Of a DNA stretch of 64,000 nucleotides, positions 14,022-31,396 are shown piece by piece (position 1 is the first letter of the stretch; every line of letters begins with the position of its first letter). This stretch comes from Methylicorpusculum sp. (GTDB lineage: Bacteria; Pseudomonadota; Gammaproteobacteria; Methylococcales; Methylomonadaceae). The stretch covers positions 3 through 64,002 of the forward strand of contig NZ_JAUSBX010000107.1 of the NCBI RefSeq assembly GCF_030651835.1. Reading direction: 5' to 3'. The notes beneath the pieces were generated by a model, which was not told where the DNA came from, did not search any database, and worked only from the letters and a program-made list of their open reading frames with translations. Made by a program: the position numbers and the translations under genes.

Positions 14022-16259
14022 CTAAACATAACGGCTAGAGTATCGATTTAATGCCCAGATAGGGAATATATTCCTATAGTTTGCGTAGGTAATCATACAG
14101 TTATAATTGAAAACACCGGAAATATTTTCTTGGGGCCAATCACCGATATCAGTCTGTCTGCTCAACAACACATTAATACCTGATTCGATAATACTTTTAT
14201 CGCCAAAATCAGCCGCCATGAGGGTCAATAATGCCCAGGCGGTATTAACGGATTGAGAAGTCTCTGCCTCGGTATAGACCAGCTTCGAACACGATTCGAA
14301 AGTTTCTCCCCAACCGCCATCCGTTTTTTGCTTATTTACTAAAAAGGTACAGGCTTTGTTGATACTGGCTGACAAAACATCATCGTCATAAAAGCTTTTG
14401 CCTTTGGCCTTACTGATAGCCTCGACACCAAACCAGGTGGCGTAAGTAAAACAGACCGCCCAGCCACCATACCAGGATCCATCCGGTTTTTGTTGTTTAA
14501 TAATAAAATGGATGCCGGAACTGATGGCATTACGTATTTCGCTGTTTTTATACTCAGGATAAGCTTCATGAAATTCCACTAATGAAATTACGCAAGCTGC
14601 CGTGCATTCTGTCCATGAATAATCAATCATAATGTCGGCAAATACTTCGGAAGGATTGAGCTTTTCCAGCCATTTAGGCGCTCGCGTCAACTCATAGGTT
14701 GCCCATCCACCATCGGCATTTTGATACGAAAGAATGACATCGACGGCCTTTTTAATGCGTATATCATCAATCGCTGGATGAACCAAACCTGAATAATGAA
14801 TGGCCAGCGTCGCGCTTAAACCTTCCGCTGTGCAATCGGCAACCGGCCAACCATTTTCTGCCGTTGAAAAAGGCCAGCTGCCTATCATGGGATGACGAAA
14901 AAATTCTGCATGCGTCGAGTGTTCGGATTTGATTTGCGAAAACTCGATAAACTCATAACTTTTTGCAATTGTCTTAGGAAAAAGTTTCCCACATTCGCTT
15001 TCAAGCATCGCGCGAGTTGCAAAAGCGGTATCCCAAAGCTGAGAGCCGTTGTAGCCGTTCATTTTCATACCATCTTCGGCAACCCACAAATAATCATACC
15101 AACGTGCCGTGTGTTTTTTAAATTGTTCCGAATCCTTACCGAAGGCGTGCCAGATACAAATGGAATTAATGGCCTTATTAACCGGGCCTATGTTGATGTA
15201 GTGGGTCTGCTCATCTTCCGCATTGAGATATTTTAAAATAAAGGCAATGGCCCTTTTTCTTAACCAGCCGCAGGGGATTTTTTCATAAGCATTGGTAAAA
15301 AAGTTCATCCACTTCAATACCGGTGAGGGCGTGGTATAGCAATCTTTTTCACAAACGGCATTACGTTGTTTCGGCCAGTCAATCGTGGCGAAATCTTCGT
15401 TATAAATTTCCTGTCTCAATGACAGAATCAGGTCATTTTCCGGCGCTTTGATGCGCTGCGCATAGCAATAAGCCATGGGCAGATAAACCATGCGGCTATG
15501 GCACCAATAGCGCCAAGGGTGAACCGGCAGCCACTTGGGAAATAGCCACATTTCCGGGAACAGGCTATTAAATCCCTGCCAGTCATAAAGATTCATTATG
15601 GATAGATAAAACTTTCCCCAAGAGGGTATGCCGGTTGCACCGCCATTAGTTTTTATCCACGTTCTGGCTTTGACCAATTGCTCATGATTGTTATCGACGC
15701 CCAGAATACGCAATGAAACATATTGCATGACCGTGCCGAACATCGTCGATTCACCTTCAATGTGCATACCCCAGCCGGCATCTTGATTTTGATGATTCAA
15801 TAAGTAAATCTTCATCATTTCCTGATGGGCTCTGGGGAACGGTGTCTCCGAGATATAGGCCGCAATCAGCAAGCCGGGCAAAAGAAATAGAGGGCCGCCA
15901 TAATCCCCCGGCCAATTGCCATCTTCAGTTTGCAAATAGGCGTAATAGTTAATCCCCTTGATGAGCGCGTCTATAACTTTTTGCGCTTCAGGATTTTCTG
16001 ACTGGGGTATTTTTCCGTCAAATTCGCGAAAATTCGAGTTTATGACCGTATTTCTAAAAACCTTATCGCCCGAATTGGGATTGCCGGATTTATCAAACTG
16101 AAAATCTTCAGCAAACCGGGCTATTTCCTCATCGGTAATCTTATCGGCATTTTGCAAATGGTCATTGATATCGCTTGAGTCCGGCTTGAAGGCCCAAATT
16201 TGCCTCCCTTTTTCAGTGAGCAGATGCCAGTTCTTCCAACCCGGTTTTACATTCAGCAT
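14022..16259 (-). CDS. osc: Oxidosqualene cyclase (predicted lanosterol synthase)
   Basis: DCTAE catalytic motif (not the DDTA of SHC), QW repeats, GYNGSQLWDT, WPGDYGGP. Confidence 0.95.
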   Translation of the reverse strand: MLNVKPGWKNWHLLTEKGRQIWAFKPDSSDINDHLQNADKITDEEIARFAEDFQFDKSGNPNSGDKVFRNTVINSNFREFDGKIPQSENPEAQKVIDALIKGINYYAYLQTEDGNWPGDYGGPLFLLPGLLIAAYISETPFPRAHQEMMKIYLLNHQNQDAGWGMHIEGESTMFGTVMQYVSLRILGVDNNHEQLVKARTWIKTNGGATGIPSWGKFYLSIMNLYDWQGFNSLFPEMWLFPKWLPVHPWRYWCHSRMVYLPMAYCYAQRIKAPENDLILSLRQEIYNEDFATIDWPKQRNAVCEKDCYTTPSPVLKWMNFFTNAYEKIPCGWLRKRAIAFILKYLNAEDEQTHYINIGPVNKAINSICIWHAFGKDSEQFKKHTARWYDYLWVAEDGMKMNGYNGSQLWDTAFATRAMLESECGKLFPKTIAKSYEFIEFSQIKSEHSTHAEFFRHPMIGSWPFSTAENGWPVADCTAEGLSATLAIHYSGLVHPAIDDIRIKKAVDVILSYQNADGGWATYELTRAPKWLEKLNPSEVFADIMIDYSWTECTAACVISLVEFHEAYPEYKNSEIRNAISSGIHFIIKQQKPDGSWYGGWAVCFTYATWFGVEAISKAKGKSFYDDDVLSASINKACTFLVNKQKTDGGWGETFESCSKLVYTEAETSQSVNTAWALLTLMAADFGDKSIIESGINVLLSRQTDIGDWPQENISGVFNYNCMITYANYRNIFPIWALNRYSSRYV

Positions 16260-16338
16260 AGATTCGTGTGATATGACTTTTTATCTTAACGTGTGCAACA
16301 TGCCAGACTTCGAAAGGATGGCAACTATTTTTGATGAT

Positions 16339-16941
16339 TTATTGATTAAATAGCGCGATTCGGACCATTGCTATAAAACCTTTCAGTTTTTTCCATAAAC
16401 CGGGTTGTTCACGCAAACGCTCATGGCCGGGCAGTAATTGCCCCTTGGCCAATTTGCCTATTTTTCTCTTCACGGCAGGGTCCAGTTTACCGTCTGCAGC
16501 TAATTCAAAAAACAAGGCTTTCACGTTACCTAAATCAAAAAAATCACGTTGCCATTCCCATTTATAATTGCCCCCATAACGAAACCAGGAGCCGCCTATT
16601 CCAGCGACTTCATAATGCGAACCGTCTTCGCGAAGGGCTGGCGATACCTGGCGCCATAAACCGATGACTTCGCCCTGTTTTTCGTCGATTAAAATGCGGT
16701 GGTACGGATAACGCCATTCTTCAAAGCCTTCCATTTGCACGCCTAAAGCCCATTCTTCTATCTCTTTACGGCTACGCGCGACAAACTCTTCATTAGGTCC
16801 GATATTCCAGCGGTATTCTGCATCATCGGTATACATAGCCCCCAAGTACTTGGGCCAGTTACCTTCCTTTTCAGCGTTACGATTTGCCTGTAACCAGCGC
16901 TCAACCATTTCTTCAAGTTCTGCTCGGGGATATGCGGTCAT
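16339..16941 (-). CDS. SnoaL/NTF2-like protein of unknown function, translationally coupled to cyp51
   Basis: YTDDAEY...GIGGSWFRY...WQRDFFD. From recall it closely resembles mycobacterial Rv0762c. ATGA overlap with the cyp51 stop. Confidence 0.75.
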   Translation of the reverse strand: MTAYPRAELEEMVERWLQANRNAEKEGNWPKYLGAMYTDDAEYRWNIGPNEEFVARSRKEIEEWALGVQMEGFEEWRYPYHRILIDEKQGEVIGLWRQVSPALREDGSHYEVAGIGGSWFRYGGNYKWEWQRDFFDLGNVKALFFELAADGKLDPAVKRKIGKLAKGQLLPGHERLREQPGLWKKLKGFIAMVRIALFNQ

Positions 16942-18596
16942 TCTTTATCTTTTAAGTGGTTGGGTTCAGTAGAATTCACACTAATTGCCTTGGTTGGGCA
17001 ATACTTTTCGGCTTGCCGGGCTTTTGTCAGCAAATCCAGCGAAGGGTTTTCTTGCAGCACCGTGACATTACCTGCATCGTCAACATGAAAAAGCTCCGGC
17101 GCCTCAGTCATACAGGTTGCATGTCCCTGGCAAAGCTCCCTATCTAATTTGATTTGAAAGCTCGGACTTGGCGGCTTACGATCCTGGACGATAGTATTAG
17201 TTGATTTATCAGCAGCCGCTTTAAGGTCTGTACGTTTTATATAACGAACACGGCAGGGCGAGATTGGCTGCACGACCATTTGGGTAAAATCATCCTGATA
17301 AGTATCCTTGTCGTCAATCAATTCAAAGGAGTAACGCCTCAAAAGTATGCTAAAAATGGCTTTCAGTTGCAACATGGCAAATGCGTTACCGGAACATTTG
17401 TGTTTGCCGCCGCCAAAGGCAATCCAGCTGAAGGGCTTTGCGTCCTCCTGGCGTGTTTCTGAATAACGATCAGGATCAAACTTTTCCGGATCAGGAAAAA
17501 CCTCCGGGATACGATGCGATACTCGCGGCGAAGCGCAGACGTATTTTCCTGCCTTGACGGTATAATCTTTAAAGTGAAAATCCTGCATCACTTTTCGGAT
17601 TAAAAAAATCAAGGGTGGATGCAAGCGCAGCACCTCTTTAATGACATTTTCCAGTATAGGAATTTCGCGTAAAGATTGAAACGTAACTTCGCCATCTACG
17701 CCAAAATGCGCATCCAGCTCATTTAACACTTCAACCATATAGGCCGGTCGGCGCGCCAATTCCAGCAGGGTCCAGGCTGCCGTCCCTGCTGTGGTGTGAT
17801 GACCGGCAAATATGGTGCCGATCAACATACCGGTTATTTCATGAGCCGATAAGCCGCTGCCATCATCATATTTTGCATCGATGAGTAATTGAAATGCATC
17901 TTCACTTTTTTCAGTTTTTTGCGCTCTTTTGGCAATAATGCCGGTGACTAATTCCTGCAGTCTGGCACGTGCTTTATCGCGGCGGCGAAACACGGGTAAA
18001 GGCAAATAGGGAAAAACAAAAGCCAGTGGGTTAACGCCTTTTTCAAGATCGTGATAAATTTTTGCAAATTCTTCATTCAGCTCATAGCGGAATTCATCCC
18101 CCAGCAGACAGTGGCTGGAGGTGTAAATGGTGAGTTCTTTCATGAACTCAAGCAAGTCAATTTCGCCGGTGTCGCCCCAGCCGGCAATCATTTGCTCGAC
18201 TTCCTGAACAATCACTTGAGCATAACCGCGCATCGGTTTGTCACGCAATACCGGCATAAGCATTTTAAGCTGTTGATCTTTTTTATGCGGAGGCGCGTCA
18301 AAAACCACGCCCTTACCAAAAATAGGCGTCATGATTTTATAGGCTTGGCTTTGATCGAGCTGAGCATCTGGCGCTCGAAAAAACGCCTCATTCGCTTCAG
18401 GCCCGGTCATCAGCACCATTTTTTGATGAAACATACGAAATTCACCGATTTCCCCGAGTGTTTTTCTGAGCTCCATCATATAGCTGAAAGGATTTTTGCC
18501 GAATTCGAGCATATTGCCTAACAAAGGCAAAGCGCGAGGCATTTTAGGCGGCACTTTGCCTGGCGAATCTGGTTTTTCGGTATTCGTCGTAGTCAT
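16938..18596 (-). CDS. cyp51: Sterol 14-alpha-demethylase CYP51 fused to a C-terminal ferredoxin
   Basis: AGHHTT I-helix, EVLRLHPP, FGGGKHKC heme ligand; C-terminal CQGHATC...CP [3Fe-4S]-type ferredoxin after a linker. Confidence 0.93.
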   Translation of the reverse strand: MTTTNTEKPDSPGKVPPKMPRALPLLGNMLEFGKNPFSYMMELRKTLGEIGEFRMFHQKMVLMTGPEANEAFFRAPDAQLDQSQAYKIMTPIFGKGVVFDAPPHKKDQQLKMLMPVLRDKPMRGYAQVIVQEVEQMIAGWGDTGEIDLLEFMKELTIYTSSHCLLGDEFRYELNEEFAKIYHDLEKGVNPLAFVFPYLPLPVFRRRDKARARLQELVTGIIAKRAQKTEKSEDAFQLLIDAKYDDGSGLSAHEITGMLIGTIFAGHHTTAGTAAWTLLELARRPAYMVEVLNELDAHFGVDGEVTFQSLREIPILENVIKEVLRLHPPLIFLIRKVMQDFHFKDYTVKAGKYVCASPRVSHRIPEVFPDPEKFDPDRYSETRQEDAKPFSWIAFGGGKHKCSGNAFAMLQLKAIFSILLRRYSFELIDDKDTYQDDFTQMVVQPISPCRVRYIKRTDLKAAADKSTNTIVQDRKPPSPSFQIKLDRELCQGHATCMTEAPELFHVDDAGNVTVLQENPSLDLLTKARQAEKYCPTKAISVNSTEPNHLKDKE

Positions 18597-18832
18597 AACT
18601 CGATCTTGATGTGTTTATCCATTTAGGAACGCTGATGTTACTGGTTCCTTCAAGAGCATTAGCCTTTGAATACTGCCAAAGACAAAAGCCAATTAAACGC
18701 TGATTTTACGCGGTGCATTCCTAATGTACAAAACTTTCTCGAAACGACTTACTCATCAGCCCCTGCGATAACGATGTAACTGATTGCCTGACAGGCTGTT
18801 CGCTGAAATACAGGGACAGAGTCAAACTATGG

Positions 18833-18865
18833 AATTGAGAAATAATGTCTTTGGAGCGCGTTTTA
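18833..18865 (+). repeat. Left direct repeat (att-like)
   Basis: aattgagaaataatgtctttggagcgcgtttta; 32/33 identical to 31364-31396. Confidence 0.85.
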
Positions 18866-18929
18866 CATTTTAATGCGCCCTCTACCGCAAAATAGGCAAC
18901 GAGCCTTATGGTTTAAAGTTAACGGCCAG

Positions 18930-21900
18930 CTATTTTCTAGAAAATCGGTCATACACTTGGCTACCAAGCCATTTCACAATAAGCTCTTGCAGCTCAGGTT
19001 TGCCCATATAGTCTGTAAACAAATCCTCGTTCAACTCCATGCGTTCGATAAACAAAGATTCAAGCACCTGACTAAAAACCAATTGAAACTTATCCTGAGA
19101 ATTCACCTTAGCAGCTTTTCGCAACAATTCATTTTGCAGTGCAGCTTCAGCGATTTGATCGAAAAACAACTGATCCGCTTCATTCAATTCACCACCAAAA
19201 CGCTCATTGATAATATCGATTAAGCGTGAAAGCGTGACTTGTTCTTCCCTGACCATACCTGAGCCGACTTCCGTTGGGCCATCCAATGGTTTGGCGTAGC
19301 CTTCGTTAAGGCTGATCGAACCCTCGCTGATCTTTTGCAGCCGGTAATATTCCAAATCAACTTCTTCGTCAAACTGATAGCCGGCACCGGTTTTTCGCTT
19401 GGGCAGTTTCAACGCCAAATGCCGCAGATAGGTAAATAGCTTTTCCAGATCGCTGTCCTGATAAGGAATTACCTGACTCAAAAAACTGTAAAGGTTTCGA
19501 AATGCCTGAATCTTACCACGCCATTGTTCAGCGACTTCCTCTTCCGACTGCTGTAACAAGGCAAACCGAGCAACTGCCTGATCCAGAATGGCATTCATGG
19601 CCTTATGATCAGAGGGACTTTGCCGGCGTTTGGGTGCAAAAAAAACCTTGGCAAAGGCATCCACCTCTTCATCAAGATAAATCGCAGACGCATCCAGTTC
19701 GGTTTTGATTTCGTAAAGATGGTCAGGATCGACTTCCTCGCCCATCACAGAGCCATCGTAATATTGCCGAAAAGCCTCCTGGATTTCACTGGGATCGTTA
19801 ACAAAATCCAGCACAAAAGTATCGTTTTTCAAAGGGTGCGTTCGATTTAGCCGGTTAAGCGTCTGCACCGCCTGAATACCCGCCAGTCGCTTGTCGACAT
19901 ACATCGTGTGCAGTAAGGGCTGATCGAAGCCTGTTTGATATTTTTCCGCCACCAATAACACGCGAAAATCCGACTTGGAAAAAGTCTCCGGCAATTCCTT
20001 TTCCTTTAACCCATCGTTCATCGCCACTTCGGTATAGGTTTTTTCCGGTATTTTGTCATCTTCGACCTTACCGGAGAATGCCACCAGGCTTTTGATGGCA
20101 TAACCTTTTTCTTTGATATATCGATCGAACTCCTGTTTATAACGCACCGCTTCCAATCGAGAGCCGGTGACCACCATGGCCTTGGCATGACCGCCAATCT
20201 TGTGCCGAGTGAAGTGCTGAAAGTGTTCGATGATAACTTCAGTTTTTTGACCAATGTTATGCGGATGCATACGCATGAAGCGCGCCAAGGCTTTTGCTGC
20301 CTTTTTGCGCTCAACGTTGGGATCGTCTTCCGCTTTTTTGATCAGTTTGTAATAGGTTTTATAGGTAACGTAATTACGCAAAACGTCTTTAATAAAACCT
20401 TCCTCAATCGCCTGCCGCATCGTATAGCGATGAAACGGCTCTCCGTTGCGACCAAAGATTTTTAAGGTTTTGTGCTTGGGCGTTGCGGTAAAGGCGAAAA
20501 AACTCATGTTGGCTTGTCGGCCACGCTTCAGCATGGACCGATACAGCCGTTCAAAATGAACTTCGCCTTCTTCCTTAGCCATCTCCATGGCCTTTTGTCG
20601 CAGGTCCGCGCCGCCCAGAACACCCTTCAATTCGGTCGCCGTTTCGCCGGATTGAGAACTGTGCGCCTCGTCGATAATGACTGCGTAATGGCGTGTCGGT
20701 AAATGACTCAAACCCGTTTCGCCGCGTTCCTCATTCAATTTGGCCAATTGGCCGGCAACGAAGGGAAATTTCTGCAAGGTGGTAATGATGATCGGCACTA
20801 TTGATTCCAAAGCCTCGGCCAGTTGCCGGGAGTCTTCATCGATTTTTTGCACCACACCTTGGCGGTGGTCAAATTGGTAAATCGTGTCTTGCAATTGCCT
20901 ATCCAACACCACCCGGTCGGTAATCACGATCACACTGTCGAAAATCCGTTGATCGGTAGCGTTATGCAAACTCGATAAGCGGTGAGCCAGCCAGGCCAGA
21001 GTATTACTCTTACCGCTACCCGCTGAATGCTCAATCAAGTAGTTATGGCCAACGCCCTCAGTTGCCGCCGCATCGACCATTTGCCGAACCGCTTGCAATT
21101 GATGGTAACGCGGAAAAATCATGGTTTCCTTGCGAAATTTTTTGCCTTCGTCGGTTACCTTTTCTTCAATATTCAAGTGTAAAAAACGTGCCAGTAAATC
21201 CAGCAAACTGTCACGCGTTAACACTTCTTCCCACAAATACGCCGTTTTGTAATTGCGTCCAAACTTATCCGGCGAATTGCCGGCACCGCCGGTGTTACCC
21301 CGGTTAAACGGCAGAAAATGGGTATTTGAGCCGACCAGCCGGGTGGTCATGTGGGCTTCTTCGGTATCGACGGCAAAATGCACTAAAGTTCGCTTGGTGA
21401 ATTGAAAGAATAATTCGCGCGGATCGCGGTCGTGACGGTATTGATGGATAGCATTTGCAGCTGTTTGGCCGGATAACGGGTTTTTTAATTCCAAGGTCAC
21501 CAATGGAATGCCGTTGACCGACAACACCACATCCAGCGAATTTTGATTGTTGGGACTGAAATGCAATTGCCGGGTCAACCCCAAGCGATTCGCCCGGTAA
21601 CGTGCGTCTAACTCGGCATTGAGACCATGAGCTGGCCGGAAATAAGCAATCCGCAAGGTTTTGCCGAAGCATTTGAAACCGTGGCGTAAGGTAGCCAATG
21701 CGCCATGCGTATCCAGCCATTTGCACAAGGCTTGTAAAACCCGTTCGCCGGTTTCATCGCCATGCAAAGATTCCAACTTGTCCCAGGTTTTGGCTTGGGT
21801 GCTGCGGATGAAGGTTAAGGCAATTTCTGGAAATATCGCTCGTTCGCGGTCGAAGTGGCTGGACGATAAATTTTCGTAACCATCGGCCAGCAGCACGGCT

Positions 21901-21941
21901 TCGATTGCGGTTTCGAAGGCGGCTTCCGAAGTGGGTCTCAT
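18930..21941 (-). CDS. hsdR: Type I restriction endonuclease subunit R
   Basis: NGIPLVTLELKN nuclease motif, HSAGSGKS Walker A, IIDEAH box, TGFDQP helicase motif. Confidence 0.95.
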   Translation of the reverse strand: MRPTSEAAFETAIEAVLLADGYENLSSSHFDRERAIFPEIALTFIRSTQAKTWDKLESLHGDETGERVLQALCKWLDTHGALATLRHGFKCFGKTLRIAYFRPAHGLNAELDARYRANRLGLTRQLHFSPNNQNSLDVVLSVNGIPLVTLELKNPLSGQTAANAIHQYRHDRDPRELFFQFTKRTLVHFAVDTEEAHMTTRLVGSNTHFLPFNRGNTGGAGNSPDKFGRNYKTAYLWEEVLTRDSLLDLLARFLHLNIEEKVTDEGKKFRKETMIFPRYHQLQAVRQMVDAAATEGVGHNYLIEHSAGSGKSNTLAWLAHRLSSLHNATDQRIFDSVIVITDRVVLDRQLQDTIYQFDHRQGVVQKIDEDSRQLAEALESIVPIIITTLQKFPFVAGQLAKLNEERGETGLSHLPTRHYAVIIDEAHSSQSGETATELKGVLGGADLRQKAMEMAKEEGEVHFERLYRSMLKRGRQANMSFFAFTATPKHKTLKIFGRNGEPFHRYTMRQAIEEGFIKDVLRNYVTYKTYYKLIKKAEDDPNVERKKAAKALARFMRMHPHNIGQKTEVIIEHFQHFTRHKIGGHAKAMVVTGSRLEAVRYKQEFDRYIKEKGYAIKSLVAFSGKVEDDKIPEKTYTEVAMNDGLKEKELPETFSKSDFRVLLVAEKYQTGFDQPLLHTMYVDKRLAGIQAVQTLNRLNRTHPLKNDTFVLDFVNDPSEIQEAFRQYYDGSVMGEEVDPDHLYEIKTELDASAIYLDEEVDAFAKVFFAPKRRQSPSDHKAMNAILDQAVARFALLQQSEEEVAEQWRGKIQAFRNLYSFLSQVIPYQDSDLEKLFTYLRHLALKLPKRKTGAGYQFDEEVDLEYYRLQKISEGSISLNEGYAKPLDGPTEVGSGMVREEQVTLSRLIDIINERFGGELNEADQLFFDQIAEAALQNELLRKAAKVNSQDKFQLVFSQVLESLFIERMELNEDLFTDYMGKPELQELIVKWLGSQVYDRFSRK

Positions 21942-22564
21942 GCTCTATTCCTTGCAATTTTTTTCTCCAACCAAAACACCATCACCTGCGCATATTCTGG
22001 TAATTCGCCGGGTTGAGAGCCATTCCATTTTTCCAATTCGCGTGCAGCGTTGAGTGGACCTTTTCCCAACCGCTGTTTAAATGCATCAAGAACAGCTCTT
22101 CTGTTGGTAACGAGTTGGTCACGGTTGAGATTCAAAATATCATTTATCGCGTTTTTTATATTCACATTATCAGAGGTAATCTCGCCGTTACCAAGAAATC
22201 TGATTTGGCGTTCGATGGGATGAGCCGGGTCGGTGAGGCAAAAACAAAGATCATCATTGTCCTTACGGGTATCACAATACTGCTCACGTTTAGTTCGACC
22301 TTTTCCTCCTAAACAGGCTCCTAAAAGGTTTTGGTAATCCAATTGTCGGCCTGGATAGTTATCCTGACACTCCCAATGTTCGATTTTCATGCTCGAAATA
22401 TTCGGGTGTATCCGCGATTGACAGTAGCAGCAAAGTCCGCGCTGCTCCTCTACCAGTGATTGCCGTAATACATCTTTATCTCGGTAATTGTCGTAATCGG
22501 AATACGGACTCTGGCGGTGGACAGTTAATGAAGTTGGTTCAGTATTTTTGCGGATCGTGCGCAT
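21938..22564 (-). CDS. ptuB: HNH endonuclease, Septu/retron PtuB-like (TIGR02646-like)
   Basis: EQRGLCCYC...IEHW...NLLGAC...C..K; coupled to the upstream ATPase. Confidence 0.75.
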   Translation of the reverse strand: MRTIRKNTEPTSLTVHRQSPYSDYDNYRDKDVLRQSLVEEQRGLCCYCQSRIHPNISSMKIEHWECQDNYPGRQLDYQNLLGACLGGKGRTKREQYCDTRKDNDDLCFCLTDPAHPIERQIRFLGNGEITSDNVNIKNAINDILNLNRDQLVTNRRAVLDAFKQRLGKGPLNAARELEKWNGSQPGELPEYAQVMVFWLEKKIARNRA

Positions 22565-23979
22565 TATTCCGCGCCCTCAAGAAAGGTGATCAGCGAATGC
22601 GCGCGTGTCAGCTCTGGCTCACTCTCGCCAAGCTGTTGTTCAAGTGCAATAATTTTCTCACGCGCTTGATCAAAATTTTCTTCGTCTATCAGTTCAAAAA
22701 GATTTCGTAACTCGACTTCTATTTTCTTATTGCGTACTGGTGTATCCATCAGCTCTAGTAAAATGCGGTTGGCATCCATACCGTAGGCATCAGTGGGAGT
22801 AATGGTAACCACTTTGCCATCTTGATATTCCAAGAAACGAACGCAATGAGCTTCAACCTCTCCAAGCACTAAAGGCGAATGGGTAGTTACAACAAACTGG
22901 CAACTCTTAAAAGTTTCCCTCAGTCTTAGAAGCACTTCTCTTTGCCATTTGGGGTGTAAGTGCAATTCAACCTCATCAATTAACACCAACGCTTCACCTT
23001 CAGCGATGGGGTTTTCACTATTCGGATTGGCGATGGCAAGGCGGCGGGTGAGGTCAAATATCAGAGCAATCAGGCCACGCTCGCCGTCTGATAACTGCTC
23101 CAAAAACAGCTGCTTTCCTGTGTTTACACCGTTCACCTGCTCATCTATCGTCGAAACTTTCATGACGGAGTAGCGAGGTGGATTTTCCTCATGGAACCAA
23201 AATTCTTTGATCTGAGGCATGAGGCCTGTAATCGCCTCTTGAAGAAGTTTCAGGATTATTGGACCCTGTTGACCGTCTCGTCCAATTGCACGAGACGAGT
23301 TCATCGCTCGGTGCCACTTGGCGAAGTCTTTGAGCGATATTTCCAGCTGCGTCAGAGATTTTGCGAAAGCAGCCGATTGCTTAAAGGGTGATTCTACTAA
23401 ATGTTTTTGGAGCGACATCGAAAGCAAGCGGTATGTCGAGTAGTAAATAACCAGTGGCTGCGTAGGGCTGCTCTTCAAGTGCCGCTTCGTCCACGCCTCT
23501 GACTCATACGTATCGGTAAACAGCCAGTTTAAACGTCTCTCGAAATTTCCCCCCAATCGTTTGTCTATCCAGGTAATTTCATTTTTCAGGTTTTTGTAAT
23601 CGGGCGACCCTTTTTCAAGAAGACGTAGCTTCTTCTTCATTAGCGATTGTTTGTTCTCAAGAGACAGTTTTTGATCGAAATCAAGGCTTTCCTTGGAAAG
23701 AAAAGTGATCAACGTGGCTGCCGACAAGTTGGCGGTTTCCATCTCGATGATGCAGGAGGATTTGCCTTGCTGAATATCTGTATTAAGGATTGGCAACGGT
23801 TTCTCCCGCGAAACAGTAAACTCCCGCAATGTGTGGGAATAAGCTACTGCGATGGCCTGCAGGATTGTTGATTTACCAACCCCATTGACGCCTGCAATCA
23901 CGGTCATCCGGTCGTCAAAATCTATATCCAGGCGATCAAAGCCTCGAAAATTGGTCAGACCTAAACTTTTCAGTTTCAT
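22564..23979 (-). CDS. ptuA: ABC/AAA ATPase, Septu PtuA-like
   Basis: NFRGF...GVNGVGKS Walker A, QLSDGE signature, LIDEVELHLHPKWQ Walker B, TTHSP, DAYGMDANRIL C-terminal motif. Confidence 0.78.
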   Translation of the reverse strand: MKLKSLGLTNFRGFDRLDIDFDDRMTVIAGVNGVGKSTILQAIAVAYSHTLREFTVSREKPLPILNTDIQQGKSSCIIEMETANLSAATLITFLSKESLDFDQKLSLENKQSLMKKKLRLLEKGSPDYKNLKNEITWIDKRLGGNFERRLNWLFTDTYESEAWTKRHLKSSPTQPLVIYYSTYRLLSMSLQKHLVESPFKQSAAFAKSLTQLEISLKDFAKWHRAMNSSRAIGRDGQQGPIILKLLQEAITGLMPQIKEFWFHEENPPRYSVMKVSTIDEQVNGVNTGKQLFLEQLSDGERGLIALIFDLTRRLAIANPNSENPIAEGEALVLIDEVELHLHPKWQREVLLRLRETFKSCQFVVTTHSPLVLGEVEAHCVRFLEYQDGKVVTITPTDAYGMDANRILLELMDTPVRNKKIEVELRNLFELIDEENFDQAREKIIALEQQLGESEPELTRAHSLITFLEGAE

Positions 23980-25349
23980 TCAGTCATCTCCTCCAGCGGG
24001 ATCTGCCCACTAACGGCAGCGGTGATCAGAGCTGCGCGGCGTTCTAAAAGTCGAGAGATGGAGTTTCGGATTTCAGTCAATAACACAGCGCTCTTCTGAC
24101 CTATTGTTTCAAGATGTTCGATGATTGCACGTTGCTCACTTACTGGCGGTATTACTACACTGAAATTTCCGAGAGACTCAAAATTTAAGCCTTCCCGACC
24201 ACTTCCTGATTGAGAAAGATCAATTTGATGTTGGCCGAGGTCAGAGCGAAGTGTGAAATAGAGAAACTTGGTTTCAATTTGACTTGAAGGTCTTACGATG
24301 CAGACATGTTGGTTAACATTAGCCTCACCTTGCATCTCTTCAATGTAAAAACAGCGACCTATTGAAGCACCTGTGATATTGATCAAAACATCACCTGCGA
24401 GTACCTTGCTATTGCTCATGGAGTCATGTGTATCGGAATCAATAAATACAATGTCATCCATTCGCAAGCCATCAAAATGGATGTTTTGGCTCCTGAAAAG
24501 TGGAACACCTTCTGACTGATATGATTCGGCTCCACCTCTTGGAGTTACACCGCTGCCGATTTTGGAAACAACATACTTTAATTTCCAAACATCCCAATGC
24601 GTAGGAATATCGCCCAACCAATCGAGGCCGGAGGGTTTTAGCGGCGCATCGGGATTCAAGCCGCGAGTGACGGCGCGGCTAATCAGCGCGGCGCGCTTTT
24701 CTTCCAGCAAGGCCAGCATTTTTTCCTTTTCCGTGACCAGCGCGTCGATACGCGCGGTTTCGCGGTCGAGGTAATCGGCGATTAGGCGTTGGGTTTTTGG
24801 AGGGGGGATATGTATCCGTAGCTCTCGGAATTTCTCTACCGTGAAATGGGCAATCGTTGCTCTATTACATAAAACATCGAACCAACCTGATTCAGAGGCT
24901 TGTTTTAGGCAATATTTCAAATACCGAACATCATTTGTTTCAGAACGAACTCTGTGGAGAGCGTTTTGATAAATGCAATTATCAGGAGTTGTATTGCTCA
25001 AAATTGAAGCGCGACCCACTTCACCACCCTCGCAAACCAACAAATCATCAATTTTTAGATTTAGTGCTTTTATTTCAGATGAGCTTGCCCACATGGTTGG
25101 TAAATCTTCGGTGTTAATACCGCTCCATTGAACATTGATAGCCTTAATATATGGTGTTTCAACATCATCAGGATTATTTGGACTTGGCTGAAGCATTTTT
25201 CCAAGCGAAATATCAAAAACATGCTTTGCCTGAGTCGCTGGCCATTCCGGTAATAAGCAAGGCTGCCACAGAACTGAAGTTATTCCGCCAGCCTCTTGTC
25301 GGGTTACGCTATCGTTAACCCGACCTACAATATTATTCATCCCGTTCAT
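23976..25349 (-). CDS. hsdS: Type I R-M specificity subunit S with REP-derived N-terminus
   Basis: Two TRDs, each followed by conserved PP..EQ/TQ..I...LD helices; central LKPSGLDWLGDIPTHW; C-terminal RAALITAAVSGQI. Confidence 0.92.
   Translation of the reverse strand: MNGMNNIVGRVNDSVTRQEAGGITSVLWQPCLLPEWPATQAKHVFDISLGKMLQPSPNNPDDVETPYIKAINVQWSGINTEDLPTMWASSSEIKALNLKIDDLLVCEGGEVGRASILSNTTPDNCIYQNALHRVRSETNDVRYLKYCLKQASESGWFDVLCNRATIAHFTVEKFRELRIHIPPPKTQRLIADYLDRETARIDALVTEKEKMLALLEEKRAALISRAVTRGLNPDAPLKPSGLDWLGDIPTHWDVWKLKYVVSKIGSGVTPRGGAESYQSEGVPLFRSQNIHFDGLRMDDIVFIDSDTHDSMSNSKVLAGDVLINITGASIGRCFYIEEMQGEANVNQHVCIVRPSSQIETKFLYFTLRSDLGQHQIDLSQSGSGREGLNFESLGNFSVVIPPVSEQRAIIEHLETIGQKSAVLLTEIRNSISRLLERRAALITAAVSGQIPLEEMTE
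25291..25328 (-). repeat. GTAG-type REP inside the 5' end of hsdS
   Basis: Minus strand gtaggtcgggttaacgatagcgtaacccgacaagaggc; 37/38 identical to 25670-25707. Confidence 0.85.
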
Positions 25350-25615
25350 CCTCTATATTTTCTCCCCACTCCGTCAATTTCCGTCGCAGCAATTCCTTGT
25401 CCGGCAAATAAAGCGAATATTCCCGCGCATGGATGTTGGCGTCTTTGGGCAAGGTGATTTCCACCAAGGCATCGTGTTTCTTTTTACACAACACAATGCC
25501 GATGGTCGGCTGTTCATCCGCAAGCTTGACGTAATGGTCGAAATAGTTGACGTACATTTGCATTTGCCCCAAATTGCCGTGGCTCAGTTTGCCGATTTTC
25601 AGGTCAATCAGCCGC
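25333..25615 (-). pseudogene. 3' fragment of a YhcG/DUF1016 PD-(D/E)xK nuclease gene
   Basis: LIDLKIGKLSHGNLGQMQMYVNYFD...PTIGIVLCK...YSLYLPDKELL is the YhcG C-terminus. The N-terminal part is replaced by REP sequence. Confidence 0.75.
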
Positions 25616-25707
25616 GTAGGTCGGGTTAGCGCAGCGTAACCCGACATTTCACCCGACACCACCGAATCGGCCTCTTGTCGGGTTACGCTATCGCTAACCC
25701 GACCTAC
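25616..25707. repeat. REPIN (inverted REP pair) downstream of the RAYT
   Basis: gtaggtcgggttagcgcagcgtaacccgaca (25616-25646) and the inverted copy tgtcgggttacgctatcgctaacccgacctac (to 25707). Confidence 0.85.
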
Positions 25708-25729
25708 GTAATTGTTTTGATTGTTGGGT

Positions 25730-26266
25730 TTATTCATGACCTATGCCTTCGAATTCAATAACATTCTCGCCCCAATTCAACGGGTACATGCCGGCTTCGA
25801 CATAACGGTGGAAACTGCTGTGTGGCCAATCTTTCGGCGCGGCTACATAACCGTGTTTAACCGGGTTGTAATGAATGTATTCGATGTGTCTCATGAAATC
25901 GGCTTCATCACGCAAGGTATGCTCCCAATATCGATGCTGCCAAATGGCCTGCTCGTGTTTATTTTTTCTTGCCCGGTTCGGCGTCGATTTAAAATCGGCG
26001 TTGCAATGTTTGGTAAACCAAGTTTTGATCAATCGCCAACGCGTAGGGTAATCCAAGTCGGCGGTCGGCAAGGTCCAAATGCAATGAATATGGTCGGGCA
26101 TGACGACGATGCCGTCGATGTCGAAAGGCCTGCTCTGTTTAACTTGGCGAAAGGCGTGACGCAAGGTAGCGATATTTTCCGCCTCATCGAAAATGGGGCT
26201 TCGCCGTTCAGTCACCAGCGTGAAAAAGAACGAGCCGCCGGGAATAAATGCGCGTCGATATTGCAT
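25730..26266 (-). CDS. REP-associated tyrosine transposase (RAYT, Y1 HUH)
   Basis: FFTLVT, VMPDHIHCIW HUH motif, WQHRYWEH, YIHYNPVKHG; flanked by GTAG REPs on both sides. Confidence 0.9.
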   Translation of the reverse strand: MQYRRAFIPGGSFFFTLVTERRSPIFDEAENIATLRHAFRQVKQSRPFDIDGIVVMPDHIHCIWTLPTADLDYPTRWRLIKTWFTKHCNADFKSTPNRARKNKHEQAIWQHRYWEHTLRDEADFMRHIEYIHYNPVKHGYVAAPKDWPHSSFHRYVEAGMYPLNWGENVIEFEGIGHE

Positions 26267-26278
26267 GTTGATTACCTA

Positions 26279-26328
26279 TGTCGGGTTATACCCTTAGGGC
26301 ACAAGCGACTATCGCTAACCCGACCTAC
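26279..26328 (-). repeat. REP upstream of the RAYT with an expanded loop
   Basis: Minus strand gtaggtcgggttagcgatag-tcgcttgtgccctaaggg-tataacccgaca. Confidence 0.8.
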
Positions 26329-26335
26329 ATTGTTA

Positions 26336-27062
26336 TTCATCCTCAATATTTTCTCCCCACTCCGTCAATTTCCGTCGCAGCAATTCCTTGTCCGGCAAAT
26401 AAAGCGAATATTTCCGCGCATGGATATTGGCGTCTTTGGGCAAGGTGATTTCCACCAAGGCTATAGGGTTCTTTTAGCAAGTCTTCGGGGCGGGCAATGC
26501 CCTGTTGGTCGCGGCTGAGTGCGAGACGTTCATAAAGACTGGCATTAAATTGGCGTTTGAGTTCGGGCAGCGTCCAGCCGTTGTTGGCAGACTCGATTTC
26601 GTAAAAGCTGCGCTCGTCGGGGTTGTCGATGGCAATCAGAAAGACGTATTGCGACCAACCCAGCTTGAAGGGTGAAACCAATTTGCCCAATGCGATTTGG
26701 GAATCCTGCGGATTCGTTGCGTTTACGGGCAAGGTTTTAGGCTCTTTAAGTGGCAGCCCGGATTTCCCAGATGCCATCTGGGAAATCCGGGCTGCCCGTT
26801 CTTGATAGGTCAGAAAGAATTTTCGCATGTATTCCAAGTTGGAACGCGAAAATCCTCGACCAAATTCGGCGGTCAATTCGACGGAGAGCGCCTTGAGCAA
26901 TGCTGATCCATACTCGGCCCGTTCTTTGCCCTGTTGTTCGTGCTCTACAAGGCGGCGGCCGATTTCAAAGTTGGTTAATACCTGAATTAAATCAACAGAG
27001 CGGACTATCGTCTTGCGCGCGGCGAGTATAAGGTCGCGGATGTCAATTAATAGGTCGTTCAC
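26336..27062 (-). pseudogene. YhcG/DUF1016 family gene with internal deletion and frameshift
   Basis: DUF1016 N-terminus (FEIGRRLVE...GFSRSNLEYMRKF...GWSQY...RSFYE...QFNASLYERL). After EDLLKEPY it jumps out of frame into a copy of the last ~40 codons. Confidence 0.75.
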
Positions 27063-29290
27063 TCCGTGACCTCGCGCAACAGACCCATAATCCGTTTCTC
27101 CACCGACTCCAATTCCGCATCAATTTCATGCAATGGTCTTGGCGGTTGATATTGGAAAAATTCGCGGTTGAAGTTGATTTCGTAACCGATTTTACCAATT
27201 CCGCCGTCTTGTTCGTCCAGGGCTTCGCGATCGATCCAGGCGTCGCCGACATAGGGCAAGACTTCGCGTTTGACGTAGCTGAGAACGTCTTCTTTCAACG
27301 GGATGTTTTCAAAATCTTTCAGGGCTGAATCAGCTTCGTATTCGTAAAATTTGCCTTTGCCGGCTTCATACTGGCCCAGTAAGGCATGCAATTCGTTGGG
27401 TTGTAGTTCCGGCAAACGCTGGCCCGGAAACAAAGCCGCCGTATCGGGCGCATCGGCTTTATGCAGTTTGGCAATCACCGGTTTGGCGTCGGGGTCAACA
27501 GTGGTAAAGGCATCGCGGAACAGTTTTTTCTGCGCCGTGCCTTTGGCGCCTTTGGCCCAGCCTTCCCTATCGCTCGTCAACGCTTTGACGATGTCCTGAA
27601 CCTGTTCCCAAATGTTATTCCAGTTGTCGTAAGCGTCTTGGCCGAGTTTATCTTCCACGGCGACCAGCGCATCGTAGAGTTCCGGGCAGGCATTGAGATA
27701 GCGTTCCTTGGCGTCCTGGCTGATTTGAAAACGCAAACGCAACGGGCGCTGGATGGTGACACGGCGGTAGCCAAAATCGGTGTTGTCGAATTGCTTGCTA
27801 GTGGCGCGCTCGATCCATTTTTGACCTTCCGGTGCCTCGGTATCGGTCGGAGTAGTGCGCCACTCGACTGGTTTACCGTCTTTATCCAGTCTTAACCAGG
27901 CTTTGCTGCTTAACGCCGATGAGCCGTGTTCTCTGGTGATTTCGTCAATCGCATTTTGGTCCAGATAACGGCGTTTATCGCCCAGGCTGCGCTTCATCGG
28001 CAGCCAGCGTTCGCGAGCGTCGATCAGTTGAATCTTACCTTGGCGGTGTTCAGCTTTCCTGTTGCTGACTACCCAAATAAAGGTGCCGATGCCGGTGTTG
28101 TAAAACATTTGCTCGGGCAAGGCGACGATGGCTTCCAGCCAGTCGTTTTCGATAATCCAGCGGCGAATCTCACTTTCGCCGCTACCTGCGCCGCCAGTAA
28201 ATAATGGCGAGCCATTGAATACGATGGCGGTACGCGAGCCGGGCTTGTCGCGATTGCCTGCTTGATAGGGCTGGAACTTGCTGATCATGTAGAGCAAAAA
28301 CAGTAATGCGCCGTCGTTAATGCGCGGCAGTTTACCGCTATAACCGCGAAAATTCGGCCAGCGGTCGATCAGCTTTTTTTCGGCCTTCCAATCCACGCCA
28401 AAGGGTGGATTCGCCAACAAATAATCGAAGCGCTGGCTTGGAAACGGGTCTTCGGTTAGGGTATTTCCGAGAGCTACCCAGCTATCCTTATGGCCTTTGA
28501 TCAGCAAGTCGGAGGCGGCTACCGCATAAGAACGCGGGTTGTAATCTTGGCCGTAAACTTTGACAGTGGCTTGGTCGTTATGAGCGCGTATCCAATTCTG
28601 CGCCTCGGCCAACATACCACCAGTGCCGCAAGCCGGATCGCAGATCGTGGCGATAATACCTTGCTGGGTTAAGACATGGGTATCGGGTTCCAGCAACAGA
28701 TTGACCATTAAGCGGATCACTTCACGCGGGGTAAAGTGATCCCCGGCGGTTTCATTGGCGGATTCGTTGAAACGGCGGATCAAGTCTTCAAACACCAAAC
28801 CCATGGTGATGTTATCGACCCGGTTGGGGTGTAAATCGATCTCGGCGAATTGGGCGACCACTTGATAGAGTCGGTTGGCTTCTTCCAGTTTTTCGATTTC
28901 TTGGTCAAAATTAAATCGTTCAAAGATTCTTTGAATATTTTCAGAAAAACCTTTGATATAGGTGATCAGATGTTGACCTATGTTATCCGGGTCGGCTTTG
29001 AGTTTATAAAAATCCAGTTTGCTGTGATTGTGAAAGCCTAATGGAGTGCCGTTTTCGTCCTTGGCTACCTCGTTAAGCAGCCGGTCGATCAATTGCGGTT
29101 CTTTGCCTTGCAGGGTTTCAAAGCGCGCCAGGACTTGATCTTTGGTTGGTGCAAGCACGGCATCGAAGCGGCGCAAAACGGTCAATGGCAACATGACGCG
29201 CTCGTATTGCGGCGGTCGATATGGGCCGCGCAGCAGGTCGGCTACCGACCAGATGAAATTGGCCAGTTGTTGGAAATTAGTTGAACTCAT
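27059..29290 (-). CDS. hsdM: Type I R-M methyltransferase subunit M (N6-adenine)
   Basis: GDHFTPREV, DPACGTGG SAM motif, NPPF motif IV, GYEINFNR C-terminus. Confidence 0.95.
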   Translation of the reverse strand: MSSTNFQQLANFIWSVADLLRGPYRPPQYERVMLPLTVLRRFDAVLAPTKDQVLARFETLQGKEPQLIDRLLNEVAKDENGTPLGFHNHSKLDFYKLKADPDNIGQHLITYIKGFSENIQRIFERFNFDQEIEKLEEANRLYQVVAQFAEIDLHPNRVDNITMGLVFEDLIRRFNESANETAGDHFTPREVIRLMVNLLLEPDTHVLTQQGIIATICDPACGTGGMLAEAQNWIRAHNDQATVKVYGQDYNPRSYAVAASDLLIKGHKDSWVALGNTLTEDPFPSQRFDYLLANPPFGVDWKAEKKLIDRWPNFRGYSGKLPRINDGALLFLLYMISKFQPYQAGNRDKPGSRTAIVFNGSPLFTGGAGSGESEIRRWIIENDWLEAIVALPEQMFYNTGIGTFIWVVSNRKAEHRQGKIQLIDARERWLPMKRSLGDKRRYLDQNAIDEITREHGSSALSSKAWLRLDKDGKPVEWRTTPTDTEAPEGQKWIERATSKQFDNTDFGYRRVTIQRPLRLRFQISQDAKERYLNACPELYDALVAVEDKLGQDAYDNWNNIWEQVQDIVKALTSDREGWAKGAKGTAQKKLFRDAFTTVDPDAKPVIAKLHKADAPDTAALFPGQRLPELQPNELHALLGQYEAGKGKFYEYEADSALKDFENIPLKEDVLSYVKREVLPYVGDAWIDREALDEQDGGIGKIGYEINFNREFFQYQPPRPLHEIDAELESVEKRIMGLLREVTE

Positions 29291-29346
29291 TATTTATTCC
29301 AGAAGGCATATTGTTTTACCTGAACTATCCATGTCTAAAAAGAATA

Positions 29347-29874
29347 CTAGGGCGTAAACCCAAAAGTACCTGCCGCATGTCGGCTGAGCAGGTCATAAAT
29401 CATTGTGCAGTTCACACCAAAAACATAAGCAGCATCAGGAATCAGAACGCGTCGTTTAGTTTCAGGCTTACTAAGTTCGTGGGTGGCTAATTTGAAGCCG
29501 TGAGCCTTTGCGGTAGCAATTAGAAACACATCAGCTCTATCTGAGCGGGCAAATTCATTTTTTGCTTGCTGTGTGTAATGGTTGTTGGAAAAATTCCAGG
29601 CCATTATCTGGCCATAAGCTTGTATGACCGAAGCATCATGTGTATCTGGGATGAAAAAGCTATCAGGCAATTGATTGGCCCATAACTTGACTTGATCATC
29701 GTCATTGCCGTCGTTGAGTTCTTGAAACACTTTAGCGGTACTAAAAAGCAAACCCGCATCATGGCCGTCAGCTAACCATTGCCAAAATCCTTGGCAAAAT
29801 TCAAAACGGTAATGAAAATTTTTAGCCTGGATAAAAACGTTGGCGTCGATCAAGTAACGGGTGTCGGGTATCAT
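29347..29874 (-). CDS. DUF4411-family PIN-like protein
   Basis: YLIDANVFIQA...FWQWL...AD.FLIA.A...LATHE...IPD; ATGA overlap with the upstream peptidase gene. Confidence 0.75.
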   Translation of the reverse strand: MIPDTRYLIDANVFIQAKNFHYRFEFCQGFWQWLADGHDAGLLFSTAKVFQELNDGNDDDQVKLWANQLPDSFFIPDTHDASVIQAYGQIMAWNFSNNHYTQQAKNEFARSDRADVFLIATAKAHGFKLATHELSKPETKRRVLIPDAAYVFGVNCTMIYDLLSRHAAGTFGFTP

Positions 29875-30995
29875 TTAATCCCCAATCTCTTACCTAGCTC
29901 AAGCACCGTTTCTGGGCGAATGTTTAACAAGCTCGCGGCTTCACGTAGCATTGTTTGACCGTTAACGGCATTTGCCACAATAGCATTGGTTAACCGTTTG
30001 CTGTTCCTGATCGGATAACTACGGAATGGACTACCACCATCGGATTTACTGGCGCTTTTACTCGCAGTGGCAATCGTTTGATAACCAATCCAATCGATTT
30101 TTCCTAAATCCAAAGCTCTTCTGGCAATAACCAGTTGGCTTACTTTGAATTTTTTGCTGAGCAGATCGTATTGATTGGGCGTTTGCTCCCATGCAGGCAT
30201 AAACTCGCGCTCAGGTGTTAATAATTCTGCGGCTATTCGATTGCAGTATGTCTCTAAGTTAACCTGGCTGGGCTGAATGGGTGCTACGTCGGAAACGCCA
30301 CTTTCTCCCAGCCATATATGCGCCAGTTCGTGGGCCAGGGTAAATATCCAGGCAGCTTCGCTATCTTTACCGTTGATAAAGATGACAGGTACGAGAGGGT
30401 CATAAATGGCAAAACCTCTGAATTCATCTACAGATAAACCTCGTTTCGTATTGCTTTTGACTATGCCGCTTCTAAATACTAACACACCGATGCTCTCAAT
30501 TTTTTCGCTAAGCAGATTGTAAAAGGCTTTGTAATCTTTGGATGTTTGGCGATCCTGCTCGTTAATATTCAACGCTTTACGAATATCGTTGGCAATTTCG
30601 ACAGGAGCATGTTGATCATGGAAAGCGAATTTTCCAATAAAAGATAGTGGATGCGCGCCTTGGTCACGCAAGTAATCCTGATACCACTGTTGTTTACGCA
30701 ACACGTCATCTAAGGTATCGAAAAAATCAATGCTAAGTGGTGCGTGATCGGGTAGCTGTCTTAAATCTGGCAGACTACGCTCGATCTTAGCCGGTGGTGT
30801 CTCCAGAAAGAAATAGCCGAAGGGTATATGAGTTTTTTGTGCAAGCGTTTCCGTTTGAGCGACAGATAATTTTCCCGCTTTGTAATCATCCATCTTACTT
30901 GGTGTACCCAGCAAACCAACCAGCACATCAAGGCTAATGCCACATTGATCGGCGGCCCAGCGTAAGATGTTTGGAGAGATTTGTAGGGTTTGCAT
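29871..30995 (-). CDS. HTH plus ImmA/IrrE-family Zn metallopeptidase
   Basis: N-terminal HTH (ILRWAADQCG...), PFGYFFL, FRGFA, FTLAHELAH HExxH motif, CNRIAAELL. Confidence 0.85.
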   Translation of the reverse strand: MQTLQISPNILRWAADQCGISLDVLVGLLGTPSKMDDYKAGKLSVAQTETLAQKTHIPFGYFFLETPPAKIERSLPDLRQLPDHAPLSIDFFDTLDDVLRKQQWYQDYLRDQGAHPLSFIGKFAFHDQHAPVEIANDIRKALNINEQDRQTSKDYKAFYNLLSEKIESIGVLVFRSGIVKSNTKRGLSVDEFRGFAIYDPLVPVIFINGKDSEAAWIFTLAHELAHIWLGESGVSDVAPIQPSQVNLETYCNRIAAELLTPEREFMPAWEQTPNQYDLLSKKFKVSQLVIARRALDLGKIDWIGYQTIATASKSASKSDGGSPFRSYPIRNSKRLTNAIVANAVNGQTMLREAASLLNIRPETVLELGKRLGIK

Positions 30996-31121
30996 TACAT
31001 TTATCTTAAATTGTTAATTAAGTGAATGATGTCTATTATAGGAGCCTTCTGGTGCCAAGCCCATACAACAAGCTATTTTTGTTTGTATATCAAACTTCAC
31101 ACCCTTTTTGTAGTCAGCAAT

Positions 31122-31358: not shown

Positions 31359-31363
31359 GCTTT

Positions 31364-31396
31364 AATTGAGAAATAATGTCTTTGGATCGCGTTTTA
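31364..31396 (+). repeat. Right direct repeat (att-like)
   Basis: aattgagaaataatgtctttggatcgcgtttta; matches 18833-18865 with one mismatch. Confidence 0.85.

Follow-up and report, generated by a model that had tools for sequence, protein, structure and literature searches.

Introduction

Septu type I, the two-protein system of PtuA and PtuB, reportedly goes back to the work of Doron and colleagues in 2018. PrrC, an abortive effector built on an ABC ATPase, is encoded between hsdS and hsdR of the type I restriction-modification (R-M) system EcoprrI; the R-M complex keeps it masked, and Stp activates it. Here we describe a ptuA-ptuB pair in the hsdS-hsdR gap of a type I R-M operon of Methylicorpusculum sp. 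(Methylococcales), found on positions 3 to 64,002 of contig NZ_JAUSBX010000107.1 (RefSeq assembly GCF_030651835.1). This whole stretch of 64,000 nucleotides (nt) is called the window, and coordinates refer to it unless another locus is named. We favor, with a probability of about 0.75, the reading that the pair is an ordinary autonomous Septu residing in the cargo slot of a widespread, mobile type I R-M family, with which it is co-expressed and co-transferred.

Stand-alone PtuAB is the archetype of Septu. The stand-alone system Ec-B88 by itself defends E. coli, requires its Walker and HNH residues (defense is lost when Walker A or B is mutated), and cleaves tRNA-Tyr upon infection (PMC13096335), and tRNA cleavage is described for some PtuAB (PMC11555353, PMC13096335). 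E. coli Septu has also been reported to cut nicked or plasmid DNA. The published regulation of stand-alone Septu is inhibition by ATP, in the form in which PMC12640716 cites Li et al. (2024); the same article puts the share of retron-linked PtuAB at approximately 7.6% of Septu systems. Defense genes embedded in other defense systems have been described for type I R-M, BREX, DISARM, and Hma, with Hma carrying Septu and type I R-M carrying PrrC among the examples given by name (bioRxiv 10.1101/2024.01.29.577857). DarTG2 is located between hsdS and hsdR in enteropathogenic E. coli (EPEC), a site called a likely hotspot (PMC12255303).

The Septu Pair and its R-M Operon

The ptuA gene (22564..23979, minus strand) encodes a 471-aa ABC-type ATPase that matches the PADLOC model PDLC00271 with an E value of 6.8e-117 across residues 1-469, together with Pfam AAA_15 (1.5e-25), AAA_21, and SMC_N. 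Among solved structures its strong matches are to PtuA only (Septu 8EE4 and the effectors of retrons Ec78 and Ec83, at about 1e-39), the top one being Retron Ec78 PtuA at 3.3e-40; AriA of the PARIS system is matched more weakly (6.2e-26 in PADLOC, 3.4e-8 in PDB). The ATPase motifs are intact and conserved across the aligned relatives: Walker A GVNGVGKS at 30-37 (G30-S37, with K36), the signature LSDGE at 296-300, Walker B D335/E336 within LIDEVE (333-338), and the H-loop H367 within TTHS (365-368). The insert in the ABC domain is enlarged and is the most variable region of the protein in the alignment. Directly 3' of ptuA and on the same strand lies ptuB (21938..22564, minus strand), which encodes a 208-aa HNH nuclease. 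A Pfam search with PtuB gave no match; the protein hits PADLOC model PDLC00322 at 3.2e-71 and aligns to the PDB PtuB chain 8ee7_C (2.7e-8) over the CCYC...IEH...YQNL region, with residues C45/C46/C48, H63, and N79 all present.

The surrounding R-M genes are hsdM (27059..29290, 743 aa; HsdM_N and N6_Mtase; MTase_I PDLC03029 at 3.1e-254), hsdS (23976..25349, 457 aa; Methylase_S; Specificity_I at 1.5e-108), and, as the final gene of the operon, hsdR (18930..21941, 1003 aa; HSDR_N, SWI2_SNF2, ResIII, and T1R_D3-like; REase_I at 1.2e-38), all on the minus strand. The three are recognized by Pfam and PADLOC as full-length open reading frames (ORFs). Alignments of HsdR and HsdM with relatives (73-94% identity) span the full proteins and show no stops; full-length HsdR relatives are found at 83-94%. 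To judge from the sequence, ptuAB is a type I (retron-free) Septu, apparently intact, within an apparently intact type I R-M operon.

The three gene junctions given in the sequence-only reading are exact to the nucleotide. The hsdS stop TGA (23978-23976) overlaps the ptuA ATG (23979-23977) as ATGA; ptuA and ptuB share 1 nt in TAATG, where the TAA of ptuA ends at 22564 on the A of the ptuB ATG; and the ptuB TGA (21940-21938) overlaps the hsdR ATG (21941-21939), again as ATGA. Gene overlap alone is not unusual, and overlaps of 4 or 1 nt occur in eight further co-directional gene pairs of the window; the conservation across loci described below is the informative part. A promoter and terminator scan performed no better than on shuffled sequence. 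From the gene spacing we infer that ptuAB is co-transcribed with the R-M genes, and it is probably translationally coupled with hsdS and hsdR.

Compared with the solved Septu type I of E. coli (ATCC 25922, 8EE4/8EE7) and with Ec-B88, the locus has the same adjacent ABC/AAA_15 ATPase and TIGR02646-type HNH nuclease and likewise lacks a reverse transcriptase (RT). It differs in that its proteins match the solved ones only locally (PtuA at about 1e-39, PtuB at 2.7e-8), in its enlarged ABC insert, and in that its lineage occurs essentially only within type I R-M operons. Retron-Eco7 and Retron-Eco4 (Septu type II, retron type I-A) use homologous PtuA and PtuB effectors, but the window has no RT or msr/msd, and retron PtuA is approximately 550 aa long against 471 aa here. 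PARIS (AriA/AriB) also holds a nuclease on an ABC ATPase scaffold and is triggered by the anti-restriction protein Ocr, a logic to which the sequence-only reading appealed; the partner in the window is an HNH protein rather than the TOPRIM/DUF4435 protein AriB, and the PtuA model fits at 6.8e-117 vs. 6.2e-26 for AriA. As for PrrC, the likeness is that of an ABC-ATPase-based abortive effector between hsdS and hsdR whose lineage is nearly always embedded. PrrC, however, is a single polypeptide with an ATPase and an anticodon-nuclease domain, whereas the window pair consists of separate proteins with a nuclease of the HNH type; that the R-M complex masks the effector and Stp activates it is established for PrrC and would be hypothetical for the window pair.

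Other identities were considered for the pair. PARIS, Gabija, and OLD were rejected since the partner is an HNH protein and the PtuA models fit best. A retron variant (retron type I-A, Septu type II) was rejected on the ground that neither an RT nor an msr/msd RNA was found. There is no RVT_1 match on the contig (the only one in the genome lies on another contig, C33), no RT among the neighboring ORFs in Pfam, and a search of 17000-33000 with Rfam gave two tRNAs and nothing else. The sequence-only reading was thus right that a Septu ATPase-HNH pair without RT lies in a type I R-M operon, as PADLOC, the PDB matches, and the intact motifs also indicate. Its further suggestion of a special "non-retron control mode" does not define a new category, because stand-alone Septu is the archetype and is self-sufficient.

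One side observation concerns the C-terminal ~60 residues of PtuA (~405-471; window 22564-22770), which exist in two forms that track the downstream PtuB subtype. PtuB type 1 is accompanied by the tail ...EPELTRAxSLIxFLEG and type 2 by ...GNTEAIQKLASxIERIERLGK (compared with L008, L010, L012, and L015), and the pairing holds even where the remaining PtuA is 68-74% identical. This pattern suggests that the tail may be a PtuB-binding module swapped along with ptuB.

Recurrence of the Gene Order

A scan for PtuA relatives with one genome per species gave 65 loci, whose flanks were checked by tblastn with the window proteins. All PtuA relatives of at least 40% identity with enough flanking sequence (L001-L016) are in the order hsdM-hsdS-ptuA-ptuB-hsdR. 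They come from Pseudomonas, Pantoea, Gluconobacter, Acetobacter, Achromobacter, Acidithiobacillus, and Desulfobulbus and, as metagenome-assembled genomes (MAGs), from Lentisphaeria, Campylobacteraceae, and Krumholzibacteriia; HsdR is 75-88% identical across these loci except for the truncated L005 (67% over 84 residues). Many PtuA relatives at 27-37% identity occupy the same position in a sister R-M clade (HsdR 65-69%). Independent gene calls give the same order in Pseudomonas oryzihabitans and Yersinia intermedia, as do the annotations of the conjugative plasmid pKvSKV1 of Ketogulonicigenium vulgare, which read methyltransferase, subunit S, AAA ATPase, "retron system putative HNH endonuclease", and type I endonuclease. 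A one-off synteny, which the sequence-only reading listed among the things that would speak against it, is thus decisively refuted, since the order recurs across many phyla and on a conjugative plasmid. At several loci tblastn missed PtuB (L008, L010, L012, and L026 among others); a non-PtuB partner was considered there and rejected, the ORFs being PtuB variants by PADLOC and HNH proteins by Pfam.

At each of the 27 loci where it could be measured, the hsdS-ptuA spacing stays within +/-4 nt, and 21 of these loci have -4 or -1, a conservation that exceeds chance. The spacing between ptuB and hsdR is -4 or -1 in most loci of the clade to which the window belongs. In a PtuA tree of 41 sequences, the window PtuA falls within a 19-row clade whose members are all embedded in R-M operons, and the sister of this clade is a six-row clade of stand-alone systems from cyanobacterial, Saprospirales (Bacteroidota), and unclassified sequences.

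The picture is different for PtuA of this model in general. In an even draw of 400 Pseudomonadota genomes plus the window's own, PDLC00271-type PtuA was present in 43 of the 401 genomes searched. Of the best 29 non-self loci, four follow hsdS and one follows a retron RT, the remainder being stand-alone or in other contexts. With four of 29 loci linked to hsdS, R-M embedding is therefore a trait of particular Septu lineages and not of Septu generally.

Cargo of the hsdS-hsdR Gap

The gap was also sampled by HsdR only, irrespective of cargo, which yielded eight genomes and eight distinct metagenome loci (the metagenome scan returned 10). Septu fills the gap at nine of these 16 loci (6/8 genomes, 3/8 distinct metagenome loci) and is thus the commonest occupant of the slot; it is probably also the oldest. 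The other seven gaps contain an OLD nuclease, MazE-PIN, M78-DUF4411, Schlafen/AlbA_2-HATPase_c_4, or PDC-M23AB plus AbiEi, or are empty; the OLD-family nuclease was found in Pseudoxanthomonas and MazE-PIN in Fulvimonas. Whatever the cargo, the flanks of the slot are constant, with the C-terminal helix of HsdS (ERRAALITAAVTGQIP) on one side and the N-terminus of HsdR (MKxTSEAAFETAIE) on the other. Because 7/16 HsdR-found loci hold unrelated cargo or nothing, the simplest reading is that the hsdS-hsdR gap is a generic defense-cargo slot with cassette exchange. This agrees with the published work on embedded defense genes under the term "guilt by embedding".

Turnover is also evident within the Septu-carrying loci. 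Extra cargo often lies between ptuB and hsdR (L009, L011, L015, L020, and L033): the M78-DUF4411 pair in L009, L011, and L020, PD-Lambda-5 in L015, and a block of approximately 5 kb in L033, while a cassette of Candidatus Accumulibacter gained a Zeta-toxin-like gene at the same place. In the HsdR tree, branches carrying cargo other than Septu fall among the Septu-bearing ones, and two PtuA lineages are intermingled on one HsdR clade. At loci where HsdR is 84-86% identical to that of the window, PtuA identity ranges from 39 to 77%, the PtuB types vary, and HsdS is at 28-37%. By these identities hsdS-ptuA-ptuB appears to be a variable block between conserved hsdM and hsdR.

A separate observation was made in Accumulibacter L125 (3546-5191 of that locus), where ptuA is split into ORFs of 124 and 323 aa, and ptuB, hsdS, and hsdR are intact. 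It reads as an example of Septu decay within an intact R-M operon.

The cargo turnover and the stand-alone sister clade speak for autonomy, and the comparative evidence leans against an obligatory partnership with the Hsd proteins. On the favored reading, R-M and Septu would be made together and transferred together, and hsdM and hsdR could act as homology arms for exchange of the hsdS-ptuA-ptuB cassette. R-M would be the first line against unmodified incoming DNA, and Septu would follow behind restriction as an autonomous, abortive second layer, in the way published for stand-alone systems. PtuB would be held by a PtuA oligomer, with ATP binding keeping the nuclease off, and infection would free PtuB to cut DNA or tRNA-Tyr, so that phage growth would be halted at a cost to the cell. 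Being common across many bacteria, the layout is that of a typical layered defense island and does not in itself point to a new control mechanism.

Evidence Against Autonomy and Alternative Explanations

Several observations weigh against an autonomous Septu that merely shares the operon. In all 27 loci ptuA is directly 3' of hsdS. The embedded state is strongly clustered on the PtuA tree, with two changes against a mean of 9.1 when the state was shuffled 500 times, and none of the 500 shuffles was as low. PtuA and HsdR divergence are correlated (Mantel r 0.81, 0/2000 permutations). Such fidelity would be equally expected if PtuA required the R-M complex, as PrrC does. In the window, moreover, the R-M partner has a disturbed hsdM-hsdS interval. 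At 25291-27062 an insertion of a Y1 transposase with repetitive extragenic palindromic (REP) elements splits a DUF1016/YhcG (PDC-S02) gene, which has an intact homolog between hsdM and hsdS in L085. The pieces, all on the minus strand, are the N-terminal DUF1016_N fragment (26343..27062; DUF1016_N at 5.8e-36, PDC-S02 at 3.3e-53), the IS200-like, REP-associated (RAYT) Y1 transposase gene (25730..26266; Y1_Tnp at 9.5e-8), and the C-terminal YhcG PD-(D/E)xK domain (25333..25737; Pfam and PADLOC matches). A 140-nt direct repeat (25345-25484 and 26336-26475, 94%) and three 47-nt REP-like repeats flank the transposase gene. The annotated hsdS start sits in a REP-like repeat, and the HsdS N-terminus overlaps the 47-nt copy at 25291-25337, so that the first ~20 residues of HsdS (MNGMNNIVGRVNDSVTRQ...) are repeat-derived; HsdS keeps both target recognition domains (TRDs) and the conserved C-terminus. 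Because of this rearrangement and the REP-derived HsdS N-terminus, it is an assumption for the window copy that the R-M system is active and that transcription from the hsdM promoter reads through. Strict co-speciation of PtuA with HsdR was also considered and rejected: the Mantel signal reflects two broad clades, and the HsdR tree contains cargo replacement and mixed PtuA lineages.

The alternative that survives best is a PrrC-like guard, as proposed in the sequence-only reading, in which PtuAB would be held latent on the HsdM/HsdS(/R) complex and unleashed once that complex is disabled or remodeled by a phage anti-restriction factor (Ocr, ArdA, or Stp-like). Like prrC, ptuAB lies between hsdS and hsdR; the PtuA tree has two deep lineages that are exclusively embedded; ptuA invariably adjoins hsdS with a conserved overlap; and Septu is the commonest occupant at nine of 16 loci. 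PtuA is an ABC ATPase, as is the PrrC N-domain, and some PtuAB cleave tRNA as PrrC does. Against this, the slot of this R-M family can equally hold other cargo or be empty, genes are often inserted between ptuB and hsdR, and PtuA lineages and PtuB types have been swapped on a near-constant HsdR/HsdM backbone, which argues against tight co-evolution. Moreover, the sister of the embedded clade consists of stand-alone systems, a stand-alone Septu functions by itself in E. coli (PMC13096335), and the second Septu of this host adjoins an orphan hsdS that has neither hsdM nor hsdR next to it. We consider such a guard quite unlikely.

A PARIS-like sensor is still less likely, and we hold it very doubtful. 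Here a PtuA oligomer would itself bind anti-restriction proteins (DNA mimics) and release PtuB without contact to Hsd, and embedding would pair R-M with its own counter-counter-defense. The distant relationship of PtuA to AriA (the PADLOC and PDB matches above) is in its favor, as is the fact that PtuAB and PARIS are both ATPase-nuclease assemblies and Ocr triggers PARIS; the variable ABC insert of PtuA would fit a putative sensor surface under diversifying selection. The other side is that the sequence indicates no ligand, that only four of the best 29 PDLC00271 loci of the even draw adjoin hsdS, and that stand-alone Septu systems have no known trigger, their published regulation being inhibition by ATP (Li et al. 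2024, as cited in PMC12640716).

Even taken jointly, the PrrC-like and PARIS-like models are rather unlikely. Their specific form, that the Septu lineages confined to the hsdS-hsdR gap act as a surveillance layer in which PtuA reads the state of HsdS/HsdM or binds anti-restriction proteins and frees PtuB on sabotage, is unlikely. A hand-over of substrate, in which PtuAB would degrade phage DNA at type I restriction breaks or stalled translocation complexes in a single pathway, is highly improbable: the nicked or plasmid DNA cutting reported for E. coli Septu and co-expression from a single operon would suit it, but other Septu systems cut tRNA-Tyr (PMC13096335), the cargo turnover and the stand-alone clade speak against it, and no sequence feature bears on it.

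The Defense Island and the Host Genome

The Septu pair and its R-M operon are part of a defense island of approximately 12.5 kb between a sterol-biosynthesis operon and tRNA-Cys/tRNA-Gly. The island begins with an ImmA/IrrE-type M78 metallopeptidase gene (29871..30995, minus strand; RmrA-like; Peptidase_M78 at 2.9e-17, RmrA at 4.6e-14), followed by its partner, a DUF4411 (PIN-like) gene (29347..29874, minus strand; DUF4411 at 3.9e-41). It is bracketed by att-like 33-nt direct repeats, the left copy at 18833..18865 and the right one at 31364..31396, just downstream of tRNA-Cys; the copies are 97% identical, with one mismatch, and are probably the scar of a site-specific integration. Among 40 relatives that share the genus, family, or order of the host, none has a close HsdR, the best being 55% identical, and the defense block is therefore a horizontally acquired island.

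The M78-DUF4411 pair lies 5' of hsdM in the window and within the hsdS-hsdR gap in L009, L011, L020, and L077-L079; it is mobile accessory cargo of this R-M operon family. A small HTH_17 gene (65-68 aa) is present 5' of hsdM in Pseudomonas, Yersinia, and Geomonas cassettes (L118 4178-4384; L120 3734-3940; L128 1338-1535). By analogy with RptR, this gene may encode a regulator of the operon; the region upstream of the window's island showed no counterpart.

On the other side of the island, a contiguous sterol-synthesis cluster occupies 7454-18596 on the minus strand. It encodes an MMPL transporter, a Rieske/VanA_C oxygenase, an NAD-epimerase/3beta-HSD, squalene epoxidase, an oxidosqualene-type cyclase, a 200-aa ORF without Pfam match, and a P450 (CYP51) fused to a ferredoxin domain. 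The cluster points to a Methylococcales-type methanotroph.

Elsewhere in the host genome (4.6 Mb), HSDR_N has 12 matches in all. The six top-scoring ones are in ORFs of 1004-1073 aa, and most of the six lower-scoring ones cover the model partially; by this count the host appears to carry an unusually heavy load of type I-like restriction genes. A second Septu is present on contig C92 (L117, 903-4451), with PtuA matching PDLC00267 (6.8e-128) and PtuB matching PDLC00349 (3.2e-93). It belongs to other subfamilies and is directly 3' of an hsdS from another family, forming an orphan hsdS-ptuA-ptuB; no hsdM was found within 900 nt upstream and no hsdR downstream.

Implications

The window locus is a further copy of a widespread five-gene cassette, hsdM-hsdS-ptuA-ptuB-hsdR, which defense-annotation tools already report as two separate systems, "RM type I" and "Septu", and many public genomes clearly contain loci of this kind. 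As in the embedded systems of Payne et al. (2024) and PMC12255303, a complete system is nested in another and the hsdS-hsdR gap is a hotspot with interchangeable cargo; the cases named in this literature differ, with Hma hosting Septu and type I R-M hosting DarTG2 or PrrC. We found no source in the literature that explicitly describes a Septu lineage specific to a single type I R-M family, an absence that is weak evidence given the partial availability of the Payne 2024 supplements.

A useful by-product of the survey is a deep Septu lineage that appears to be almost exclusive to a single type I R-M family, where it fills over half of the sampled cargo slots. If the surveillance layer discussed above were true, it would provide the first defined trigger for a stand-alone Septu and would explain the constant adjacency of ptuA and hsdS. 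The R-M family, with cognate pairs in Yersinia intermedia, Pantoea dispersa, Pseudomonas oryzihabitans, and Chromobacterium violaceum, is a convenient natural system in which to ask whether embedded defenses signal to their hosts, like PrrC, or merely co-travel.

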